In this document: in pieces, positions 26,972 through 44,792 of the stretch
Layout of the letters: each line of letters opens with the position of its first letter
Position numbering within the stretch: the stretch's first letter is position 1
Sequence record: OR539219.1
Length of the DNA: 64,000 bases
Source: Escherichia phage vB-Eco-KMB39
Strand: one strand, 5' to 3'
Notes under the pieces: generated by a model
Seen by the model: the letters and a program-made list of their open reading frames with translations, nothing else
Told to the model about the DNA's origin: nothing
The model's database searches: none
Made by a program: the position numbers and the translations under genes

Positions 26972-27292
26972 TTATTCTTTAAATCTAATCAATTTATTCA
27001 TAGACTTTGAAACTTCTGCACGAACCTCATGTAGATTTTTGAGCTGTTCAAGACGCTGCTCATAGTAAGCAATTTCATCTTCTTCGAGACAGTCCTGTGA
27101 ATCTTCTTTAAGATAACGTGCATAGTCCTGAAAAGCTTTACGGACTACTTCCTGGAAGTCATCAAGACTTTGAATTTTCTTAGGAGCGACAGATACACGA
27201 CGAGGTGCAGTATAATACTCATAACCAAACCCTGCACTTAATTGAGCCATTAGTATTTTTCCTCTGGTTGGAACACTGCACGACAAGCCCAC
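26972..27292 (-). CDS. Small hypothetical protein
   Basis: ORF; likely internal start. Confidence 0.4.
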
Positions 27293-27552
27293 ATACTGGC
27301 TTCTTTGAGTTTCGTTTTAGCAATAGTTAACTGATCGAGGCTTTCAGCATAATTCTTCGCGAGTTCATCATCTTCACAGCTATCAAATGCTTCCCAAAAT
27401 TCATCGTATAAAGCATCAAAGATAAGTCCTAAACGAACTTCAGCGTCTTTGATAGCATTCACTTTACCGATTTTCTCTTCGGTATGCGGCTTATAACCCT
27501 TAATATCTTCAATCATATTTGACTTCCTCACCAGTACATAAATCATATTCAA
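27250..27552 (-). CDS. Small hypothetical protein (in the T4 vs.3-vs.5 region)
   Basis: ORF; likely internal start [11 protein letters not shown]. Confidence 0.4.
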
Positions 27553-27730
27553 CTAAACGAATAGGTTCATGAATGCCATATCCCTGAACAGAAATTTCTG
27601 TCGTAGGATAAATTCCATCAATATCACCCATATTCCAGGCTTCATTAAATTGCTGTTCGCCTGAATTACTAAACCACTCGGCGAAAGCATTTAGCACATC
27701 TTCAGAACCTTCAATAATTATCTTTGCCAT
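27509..27730 (-). CDS. Small hypothetical protein
   Basis: 73-aa ORF. Confidence 0.4.
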   Translation of the reverse strand: MAKIIIEGSEDVLNAFAEWFSNSGEQQFNEAWNMGDIDGIYPTTEISVQGYGIHEPIRLVEYDLCTGEEVKYD

Positions 27731-28147
27731 TACAAACTCTCGGTGAAGGTACGAGCGATAACGTCGCGCTGCTGTTCCGGAGTCAGAGAGTTAAAGCGAA
27801 CTGCATAACCAGATACACGGATGGTCAGCTGCGGATATTTTTCCGGATGCTTAACTGCATCTTCCAGAGTTTCACGACGCAGAACGTTAACGTTCAGGTG
27901 TTGACCACCTTCAATTTTAACTAGTTTCACGACGCAGAACGTTAACGTTCAGGTGTTGACCACCTTCAATTTTAACTGTAGGTTGTGTTTCAATTTCAAT
28001 TTCACGGGCATGCAAACCGTAGAAAATTTCCGGGTCTACAAAAGAGTCCTCTTTAAAGGTTTTAGAGACAATAATTCGTGCTTGAATACCATCTTCAAAA
28101 TAAATAGTACCTTTATGTGTGCCTTCAAGAATTTGATATGCTTTCAT
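27730..28147 (-). pseudogene. GrcA/YfiD-like autonomous glycyl-radical cofactor gene, reading frame broken by a 55-bp tandem duplication
   Basis: N-terminal ORF 27917-28147 ends ...[18 protein letters not shown]; second piece 27730-27930 (GTG start only) encodes [62 protein letters not shown] with the RVSGY glycyl-radical motif; removing one repeat copy restores one ~120-aa ORF. Confidence 0.8.
27868..27977. repeat. Perfect tandem direct duplication, 2 x 55 bp
   Basis: Copy 1 at 27868-27922 and copy 2 at 27923-27977 are identical (AGTTTCACGACGCAGAACGTTAACGTTCAGGTGTTGACCACCTTCAATTTTAACT). Confidence 0.9.
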
Positions 28148-28154
28148 ATAAACC

Positions 28155-28484
28155 TCAATTAGAAAATAAATTTATCCAAGATTGTTCTTTAATTAAAAAC
28201 GGCTCAGAATCATATGCCATTAAACTTTGCGTAATTAATCCTTTAAAAGGTCCATCAATAAATTCCATGGTAAAATATGGAATTTTATTCATTAGCCGTG
28301 CATTAGGAGCAGTACATAAAACTCTGCATCCTTTGAATACACCTTTTTGTAATTTGTATTGCTTGGGATAAAATTCGCTCAAAATGTTATTATTTGCTAA
28401 AATTTCAAAATGATTCACCAATTTATTTTTAATAGTTTTTGGCGAAAAATAAAGATATTCGAAAAGTTGCGTATCTGTCATCAT
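28155..28484 (-). CDS. Hypothetical protein
   Basis: ATG 28482-28484 in ATGA overlap with upstream stop; 109 aa. Confidence 0.45.
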
Positions 28485-42490: not shown

Positions 42491-43081
42491 ATGCTCTTTA
42501 CATTTTTTGATCCGATTGAATATGCGGCCAAAACGGTGAATAAAAACGCGCCGACTATTCCTATGACAGATATTTTTAGAAACTATAAAGACTATTTTAA
42601 ACGCGCTCTTGCGGGATACCGCTTACGTACTTATTATATCAAAGGTTCACCACGCCCGGAAGAATTAGCAAATACTATATATGGAAATCCACAGCTGTAT
42701 TGGGTTTTATTGATGTGTAATGATAATTATGATCCATATTATGGATGGATTACTTCACAAGAAGCAGCTTATCAAGCATCTATACAAAAATACAAAAATG
42801 TAGGTGGAGACCAAATAGTATATCACGTGAATGAGAACGGTGAAAAATTTTATAATTTAATATCATACGATGATAATCCATATGTTTGGTATGATAAAGG
42901 CGATAAAGCTAGAAAATATCCTCAATATGAAGGAGCGCTTGCTGCGGTCGATACGTATGAAGCGGCTGTTCTTGAAAATGAAAAACTTCGTCAAATAAAA
43001 ATAATAGCAAAATCAGACATCAATTCATTTATGAACGACCTTATACGTATAATGGAGAAATCTTATGGAAATGATAAGTAA
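42491..43081 (+). CDS. 53: Baseplate wedge protein gp53
   Basis: 196 aa as T4 gp53; first gene of the plus-strand baseplate cluster. Confidence 0.92.
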   Translation: MLFTFFDPIEYAAKTVNKNAPTIPMTDIFRNYKDYFKRALAGYRLRTYYIKGSPRPEELANTIYGNPQLYWVLLMCNDNYDPYYGWITSQEAAYQASIQKYKNVGGDQIVYHVNENGEKFYNLISYDDNPYVWYDKGDKARKYPQYEGALAAVDTYEAAVLENEKLRQIKIIAKSDINSFMNDLIRIMEKSYGNDK

Positions 43082-44792
43082 TAACCTTAATTGGTTTGTT
43101 GGTGTTGTTGAAGATAGAATGGACCCATTAAAATTAGGTCGTGTTCGTGTTCGTGTGGTTGGTCTGCATCCACCTCAAAGAGCACAAGGTGATGTAATGG
43201 GTATTCCAACTGAAAAATTACCATGGATGTCAGTTATTCAACCTATAACTTCTGCAGCAATGTCAGGAATTGGAGGTTCTGTTACTGGACCGGTAGAAGG
43301 AACTAGAGTTTATGGTCATTTTTTAGACAAATGGAAAACTAACGGAATTGTCCTTGGCACGTATGGTGGAATAGTTCGCGAAAAACCGAATAGACTTGAA
43401 GGATTTTCTGACCCAACTGGGCAATATCCTAGACGTTTAGGAAATGATACTAACGTATTAAACCAAGGCGGAGAAGTAGGATATGATTCGTCTTCTAATA
43501 TTATCCAAGATAGTAATCTAGACACTGCAATAAATCCCGATGATAGACCACTATCAGAAATTCCAACTGATGATAATCCAAATATGTCAATGGCTGAAAT
43601 GCTTCGCCGTGATGAAGGATTAAGACTAAAAGTTTATTGGGATACCGAAGGATATCCGACAATTGGTATTGGTCATCTTATCATGAAGCAGCCAGTTCGT
43701 GATATGGCTCAAATTAATAAAGTTTTATCAAAACAAGTTGGTCGTGAAATTACAGGAAATCCAGGTTCTATTACAATGGAAGAAGCGACAGCTTTATTTG
43801 AGCGTGATTTGGCTGATATGCAACGTGACATTAAATCACATTCTAAAGTAGGACCAGTCTGGCAAGCTGTCAACCGTTCTCGTCAAATGGCATTAGAAAA
43901 TATGGCATTTCAGATGGGTGTTGGCGGTGTAGCTAAATTTAACACAATGTTAACTGCTATGTTAGCCGGAGATTGGGAAAAAGCATATAAAGCTGGTCGT
44001 GATTCATTGTGGTATCAACAAACAAAAGGCCGTGCATCCCGTGTTACCATGATTATTCTTACAGGTAATTTGGAATCATACGGTATTGAAGTGAAAACAC
44101 CGGCTAGGTCTTTGTCAGCAATGGCTGCTGCTGTAACAAAGTCTTCTGATCCAGCTGACCCTCCTATTCCGAATGATTCGAGAATTTTATTTAAAGAACC
44201 TGTTTCTTCATATAAAGGTGAATATCCGTATGTTCACACAATGGAAACTGAAAGCGGTCATATTCAGGAATTTGACGATACCCCGGGACAAGAACGATAC
44301 AGATTAGTTCATCCGACTGGAACATATGAGGAAGTATCACCGTCAGGAAGAAGAACAAGAAAAACTGTTGATAATTTGTATGATATAACAAATGCTGATG
44401 GTAATTTTTTGGTAGCTGGCGATAAAAAGACTAACGTCGGTGGATCAGAAATTTATTACAACATGGATAATCGTCTTCACCAAATAGATGGAAGCAATAC
44501 GATATTTGTGCGTGGCGATGAAACTAAGACGGTTGAAGGTAATGGAACTCTCCTAGTCAAAGGTAATGTTACTATTGTAGTTGAAGGTAATGCTGACATT
44601 ACAGTTAAAGGAGATGCTACCACTTTAGTTGAAGGAAATCAGACTAATACAGTAAATGGAAATCTTTCTTGGAAAGTTGCTGGGACAGTTGATTGGGACG
44701 TTGGTGGTGATTGGACAGAAAAAATGGCATCTATGAGTTCTATTTCATCTGGTCAATACACAATTGATGGATCGAGGATTGACATTGGCTAA
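43065..44792 (+). CDS. 5: Baseplate hub / cell-puncturing protein with lysozyme domain gp5
   Basis: 575 aa; MEMISNNLNWFVGVVEDRMDP N-terminus; lysozyme domain (MAEMLRRDEGLRLKVYWDTEGYPTIGIGHL); C-terminal VEGN beta-helix repeats. Confidence 0.96.
   Translation: MEMISNNLNWFVGVVEDRMDPLKLGRVRVRVVGLHPPQRAQGDVMGIPTEKLPWMSVIQPITSAAMSGIGGSVTGPVEGTRVYGHFLDKWKTNGIVLGTYGGIVREKPNRLEGFSDPTGQYPRRLGNDTNVLNQGGEVGYDSSSNIIQDSNLDTAINPDDRPLSEIPTDDNPNMSMAEMLRRDEGLRLKVYWDTEGYPTIGIGHLIMKQPVRDMAQINKVLSKQVGREITGNPGSITMEEATALFERDLADMQRDIKSHSKVGPVWQAVNRSRQMALENMAFQMGVGGVAKFNTMLTAMLAGDWEKAYKAGRDSLWYQQTKGRASRVTMIILTGNLESYGIEVKTPARSLSAMAAAVTKSSDPADPPIPNDSRILFKEPVSSYKGEYPYVHTMETESGHIQEFDDTPGQERYRLVHPTGTYEEVSPSGRRTRKTVDNLYDITNADGNFLVAGDKKTNVGGSEIYYNMDNRLHQIDGSNTIFVRGDETKTVEGNGTLLVKGNVTIVVEGNADITVKGDATTLVEGNQTNTVNGNLSWKVAGTVDWDVGGDWTEKMASMSSISSGQYTIDGSRIDIG

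Follow-up and report, generated by a model that had tools for sequence, protein, structure and literature searches.

The stretch of DNA analysed here (64,000 nt from Escherichia phage vB-Eco-KMB39, sequence record OR539219.1, hereafter the window) carries on its minus strand a gene of the GrcA/YfiD type, i.e., for an autonomous glycyl radical cofactor, whose reading frame is interrupted by a tandem duplication of 55 bp. The question raised by this locus is whether the duplication belongs to the phage genome, in which case the gene would be either lost or expressed by recoding, or whether it was created when the genome was put together. The first-pass annotation of the sequence had left three options side by side, namely a recent inactivating duplication, a sequencing or assembly artefact and a coding gap of the kind known from T4 gene 60.

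A 55-bp tandem repeat in the vs.6 reading frame

Direct string comparison confirmed the perfect 55-bp duplication described in the first-pass annotation, the units at 27868–27922 and 27923–27977 being identical and directly adjacent, and Tandem Repeats Finder returned the same segment as one row (27868–27977, period 55, 2.0 copies, 100% matches, 0 indels). Read in mRNA order on the minus strand, copy 1 (27923–27977) corresponds to nt 171–225 of the gene and copy 2 (27868–27922) is identical to it. The two copies meet at 27922/27923 (CCTTCAATTTTAACT|AGTTTCACGACGCAG), a putative join between the end and the start of a contig. Beyond the outer edges of the repeat the identity at period 55 is continued by 0 bases on either side, so that neither edge shows microhomology. 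Scanning of the whole 64-kb window retrieved no other long exact tandem repeat, and a chance origin of an exact 55-base repeat in 64 kb is excluded. Elsewhere in the window, imperfect 24-bp tandem repeats were recorded at 44536–44639 (71–78% matches, about 2.4–3.3 copies per Tandem Repeats Finder row), inside a 575-aa ORF (43065–44792) on the plus strand.

The gene spans 27730–28147 on the minus strand and measures 418 nt as written, or 363 nt when one copy of the repeat is subtracted. Its description as a GrcA/YfiD-like gene cut into an N-terminal and a C-terminal piece, 55 not being a multiple of 3, is correct both in its frame logic and in its outcome. The +1 shift caused by the 55-bp insertion gives rise to an ORF of 76 aa (27917–28147, minus strand), which starts with ATG and ends with ...LRRETS followed by UAA, while the remainder of the gene is left to an ORF of 66 aa (27730–27930, minus strand), which starts with GTG and includes the whole glycyl-radical motif. 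The GTG ORF and the stop of the 76-aa ORF overlap by 14 nt, and inspection of the sequence upstream of the GTG revealed no evident Shine-Dalgarno sequence. An exact look-up of the 76-aa product among 153 billion gene positions gave no record. Deletion of one repeat copy restores, as had been predicted, a single ORF, of 363 nt and 120 aa; as written, vs.6 is without a single ORF for a GrcA-type product of ~14 kDa, and the 120 aa are obtained only after that removal.

Assignment of the interrupted gene to T4 vs.6 (Y06I)

The restored 120-aa product matched the Pfam family Gly_radical (PF01228) with 67.2 bits (cut-off 22.2) and contains the glycyl-radical motif RVSGYAVRF; the full Gly_radical match is held by the 66-aa GTG ORF. 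With the NCBIfam model for GrcA (TIGR04365), the divergence of the N-terminal half of the vs.6 product left the score at 154.6 bits, below the equivalog cut-off of 170. The best match in PDB was E. coli GrcA (6OWR, E=4.6e-42), and the last 61 residues of the restored product are identical to those of E. coli GrcA, in agreement with the likeness of the C-terminal piece to the GrcA C-terminus noted in the first-pass annotation.

At the nucleotide level the restored gene is identical to vs.6 of T4T (locus L014) at 355 of the 363 positions, with 8 differences, and the gene order vs.8-vs.7-vs.6-vs.5-vs.4-vs.3-regB agrees with that of T4T. Both flanking genes are intact, vs.7 (Y06J family) lying upstream at 28155–28484 and vs.5 downstream at 27509–27730, both on the minus strand, with the ATG of vs.5 overlapping the vs.6 stop. 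By sequence and gene order, the split gene is thus the orthologue of T4 vs.6, that is Y06I. It shares with T4 vs.6 and E. coli GrcA (YfiD) the restored 120-aa product, the T4T gene order and the GrcA-identical C-terminal 61 residues, and differs from both in being broken into ORFs of 76 and 66 aa. As to the neighbourhood, vs.4, located two genes downstream of vs.6 (window about 27250–27516, minus strand), also looks intact, and homologues of vs.4 bear the Acb2/Tad1 hairpin domain (anti-CBASS sponge).

In PMC8683613, which cites Wagner et al. 2001, the spare-part function, rescue of oxygen-cleaved pyruvate formate-lyase (PFL), is described as biochemically validated for two proteins, Y06I and YfiD/GrcA, and biochemistry for both steps, installation of the radical by the PFL-activating enzyme and rescue of PFL, is given there for Y06I and YfiD only.

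Distribution of the duplication

The window derives from a T4-like (Tequatrovirus) genome, with a best 24-kb identity of about 96% in the collections searched, rising around vs.6 to 99.7% with phages G4507 and ECP52. The top GenBank matches to a query of 1101 bases across the locus all span 1046 record bases, i.e., 55 fewer. In a base-by-base alignment an intact 363-nt vs.6 was recognised in 22/22 relatives, 21 of them single-copy and one, vB_Eco_Some, with a 79-bp duplication of its own (see below), and each of 20 separately retrieved loci had one gene call of 120 aa. The comparison with related T-even genomes suggested in the first-pass annotation gave a uniform result, since the 55-bp unit occurs once in every relative compared (24 examined).

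The junction between the copies was then used as a probe in its own right. A 34-base query centred on 27922/27923, with which single-copy genomes cannot seed a match, found no match in 50,697 GenBank phage records, where about 600 relatives carry the 55-bp unit, and none in the plasmids of PLSDB. An exact 30-mer across the junction, CCTTCAATTTTAACTAGTTTCACGACGCAG, had no match in IMG/VR nor in 241 million JGI metagenome records. The 55-mer itself was present in four IMG/VR contigs, with one copy in each, and none of the four ended at it.

A second peculiarity of the window is a synonymous TCC-to-TCT change at position 27811 (gene nt 282), absent from the 22 relatives. The context of this window-specific SNP had no match in IMG/VR, and the variant was met elsewhere only in the metagenome contig OIWM01000017.1 (locus L024), which has one copy of the 55-bp unit and belongs to a different phage, otherwise 92–98% identical to the window.

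These data bear directly on the reading that a replication or recombination error produced a real and recent 55-bp tandem duplication, which frameshifted vs.6 into a pseudogene. Both copies are contained in the sequence as given, and their 100% identity is what a very recent event would leave behind; against this, no second genome or contig with the duplication was found in any collection searched. Slippage-type duplications usually show some microhomology, and the ends of this repeat have none. The loss of vs.6 would be tolerated, in this case, because the gene is dispensable in laboratory (aerobic) growth, and vs.6 is indeed accessory, its only validated role being the repair of oxygen-cleaved pyruvate formate-lyase (PMC8683613). 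On balance, we consider a real pseudogenising duplication unlikely, while giving it some weight in what follows.

The 3' part of vs.6 is shared with host grcA

The 5' half of vs.6 has no DNA similarity to E. coli grcA, and the two genes are in this respect unrelated in their N-terminal halves. On the contrary, nt 179–347 of the restored gene (169 nt; window 27746–27969, minus strand) form a block of identity with grcA, interrupted in the window only by the synonymous difference at nt 282; apart from this position, the block is matched by grcA in 5,426 out of 5,426 complete E. coli genomes. The duplication lies inside the block with the exception of its 5' edge, which reaches 8 nt beyond it. 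Downstream of the block, host-type bases appear at nt 348, 351, 354, 357 and 358 in subsets that vary between phages (window compared with L003 and with L004–L023). This pattern suggests recent and possibly recurrent gene conversion between phage and host.

A probable contig-end overlap

In our judgement the 55-bp duplication is probably an assembly artefact, absent from the phage genome itself. Being circularly permuted, with a terminal redundancy of several kilobases, the genomes of T4-like phages assemble as circles and have no biological terminal repeat of 55 bp. When a contig closes into a circle, a de Bruijn graph assembler leaves an overlap of length k at its two ends, and with the defaults of SPAdes and metaSPAdes (k of 21, 33 and 55) the overlap is of 55 bases. 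Were such a contig rotated, or joined end to start, to the orientation of the T4 reference with neither copy trimmed, the terminal overlap would become an internal exact tandem repeat in vs.6, and the frame would be broken on paper only. Since the 3' part of vs.6 is identical to host grcA, the locus is a fork in the assembly graph when host reads are present, which is probably why the contig ends fell within it.

SPAdes-family assemblers go up to a k of 55 by default (PMC10463629), the overlap in metaSPAdes graphs is 55 as well (PMC12133742), and a circular replicon has been recognised from "contig ends overlapping by 55 bp" (PMC8851603). The Unicycler paper reports that SPAdes duplicates the sequence at the start and end of circular replicons, which needs repair (PMC5481147). 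According to the COBRA paper, the end overlaps of metaSPAdes and MEGAHIT contigs equal maxK, and contigs are interrupted at multi-path sites, including regions common to several genomes (PMC10914622).

The repeat shares with the k-overlap of circular contigs its exactness, its tandem arrangement, the lack of microhomology, the indifference to reading frame, the single occurrence in the genome and the absence from relatives, besides belonging to a type of genome that assembles as a circle. Its length of 55 is exactly a default assembler k, a feature of the overlap artefact that speaks at the same time against a real duplication. The window runs on the same strand as records oriented to the T4 reference and is displaced from them by about 33.7 kb, which is consistent with, and no proof of, rotation of the record after assembly. 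For this genome both the assembler and the rotation step are inferred.

Mis-assemblies of other records at this locus

A second exact tandem duplication in vs.6, of 79 bp (gene nt 269–347), is found in Escherichia phage vB_Eco_Some (OZ034686.1), where a frameshifted product of 126 aa is annotated as "Autonomous glycyl radical cofactor". A toy de Bruijn graph was built with k=79 from the single-copy locus of this phage and the host locus. Along the phage path it branched at two vertices only, nt 179–257 and nt 269–347, and the duplicated unit coincides exactly with the out-branching vertex, the last 79-mer shared by phage and host. For reads of ~76 nt, 79 is probably the largest k kept by MEGAHIT. 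The k list of the program includes this value (PMC10914622), and the vB_Eco_Some genome was assembled from NextSeq reads (150- or 76-bp) with MEGAHIT v1.2.9 at defaults, the genomes of that study being "rearranged using SnapGene" after assembly (PMC13390438). The 79-bp duplication is thus probably a MEGAHIT end overlap that was retained through manual rearrangement.

The two cases are alike in the gene affected, in the exact tandem nature of the repeat, in a length not divisible by 3 that belongs to the default k list of an assembler, and in being confined to one record each. They differ in position and size (nt 269–347, 79 bp, in vB_Eco_Some; nt 171–225, 55 bp, in the window) and in that the vB_Eco_Some unit is the last k-mer shared by phage and host, whereas the window unit is not; the documented rearrangement after assembly is a feature of the vB_Eco_Some record. 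A composite search for further duplications of canonical k length at predicted vertices of the vs.6 locus recovered only the k=79 vB_Eco_Some control, which counts against the artefact. The one other duplication in this gene being probably the work of an assembler, the case for a real duplication in the window is further reduced.

A different error at the same place is provided by JAODFN010000001.1, a contig of 489 kb from an E. coli assembly (GCA_025336695.1, locus L011), which carries T4-like phage genes up to vs.6 and past the shared block becomes 100% E. coli chromosome, with eamB, LysR and DEAD-helicase genes (L011 2438–3600). This contig is a phage-host chimera joined via the block shared by vs.6 and grcA.

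Altogether, the artefact is favoured among the three options of the first-pass annotation because the length of the repeat is a default k, its ends are devoid of microhomology, its junction was found nowhere else in the collections and a sister artefact occurs in the same gene; the same four points tell against the inactivating duplication.

Position of the repeat in the assembly graph

The exact position of the repeat fits the contig-end overlap less well. With k=55 and E. coli as the host, the toy graph predicted branching vertices at gene nt 179–233, 227–281, 283–337 and 293–347, and the window unit (nt 171–225) falls on none of them, lying 8 nt upstream of the nearest. In this respect the repeat departs from a circular-contig overlap anchored at a host/phage branching vertex, which counts in favour of a real duplication. 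A vertex at the unit would require a sequence that shares nt 171–225 and differs at nt 170 or 226. Of the candidates for such a sequence, a co-assembled relative found no support and another bacterial host was rejected: none of 23 relatives differs at either position, the nearest polymorphisms being at nt 169 and 225, and the exact 55-mer had no match in 100,044 bacterial species representatives. Because neither a relative nor a bacterial representative of this kind was found, branching with the host does not explain the exact position of the repeat. Minor variants or error-corrected host reads as the source of a vertex at nt 171–225 would be speculation.

On the other hand, coincidence with a vertex is not obligatory for the artefact, as a loop without branches may begin at any point. 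The closeness of the repeat to the shared block is explained only partly, and in a finished sequence a real 55-bp duplication would look just like an artefact.

Recoding of the interrupted gene

If the duplication were real, vs.6 might still be expressed by recoding, and two routes can be drawn. In the first, a hop like that of T4 gene 60 would lead from the ACU codon at gene nt 223–225 to its duplicate, 55 nt downstream, and restore exactly the 120-aa protein; in the second, termination and reinitiation at the overlapping GTG would yield a stand-alone glycyl-radical peptide of 66 aa. Some features are in agreement with these routes. Resumption at the ACU at +55 reads ...LEDAVKHP in the native frame, and the stop is found two codons past the first ACU; the GTG ORF overlaps that stop by the 14 nt mentioned above and holds the full Gly_radical match, and naturally short GrcA2 and GrcA3 families, of 78–80 aa, exist in NCBIfam.

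The resemblance to gene 60 was the most speculative proposal of the first-pass annotation, according to which the codon before the stop (ACU AGU UAA) is repeated exactly 55 nt downstream. This holds for ACU, which stands two codons before the stop, and does not hold for the stop-adjacent AGU, which faces CUG at +55. Moreover, every copy-1 codon tested recurs at +55, because any 55-bp tandem duplication yields matched codons 55 nt apart, so that the suggested take-off and landing geometry is automatic and carries no hint of bypass. In gene 60, as is well established, the take-off codon is immediately followed by the stop. The window resembles gene 60, with its coding gap of 50 nt, in having a stop close to a codon that is met again about 50 nt downstream, resumption at which would give an intact protein; it differs in that the take-off codon is not directly before the stop and in a gap that is a verbatim coding copy conserved in no relative. 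As to a take-off hairpin, folding of the region gave a minimum free energy of −19.8 kcal/mol (z = −1.05), with 30 of 200 shuffles folding as well, so that the region does not stand out from shuffled sequence. Being an exact coding copy found in no relative, the "gap" shows no sign of selection, and reinitiation is disfavoured by the lack of a Shine-Dalgarno sequence before the GTG. A +1 frameshift at ACU-A-GUU, whose product would contain an internal repeat of 18 aa, was also considered and dropped, since from the sequence no slippery re-pairing is expected there.

Expression of a truly duplicated gene by recoding, through either route, hence appears very improbable. Still harder to credit is the specific proposal that a real duplication is accompanied by full-length GrcA made through the ACU-ACU hop, as a new and unselected coding gap, or by use of the 66-aa ORF as a minimal spare part.

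Implications for T4-like genomes

For the biology of the phage the duplication most likely has no bearing. The practical value of this result is small and lies in database curation and in the filtering of genome scans: before pseudogenes or recoding are inferred, exact tandem repeats with the length of a default k (55, 77, 79, 99, 127, 141) should be removed. At least two public records contain errors at the vs.6 locus, OZ034686.1 with its 126-aa "GrcA" and the chimera JAODFN010000001.1. If the duplication were real, it would mean that a validated phage auxiliary metabolic gene has recently become a pseudogene, which is of modest interest; only a demonstrated bypass would be remarkable, as a true hop would mean that T4-infected cells bypass without the specialised signals of gene 60.

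Most likely, the 55-bp duplication does not exist in the phage and reflects contig ends overlapping at k=55 that were left in place when a T4-like genome was rotated. In the phage itself vs.6/Y06I is almost certainly ordinary and intact, and the perfect 169-nt identity between vs.6 and grcA in T4-like phages constitutes a recurring trap for short-read assemblers.
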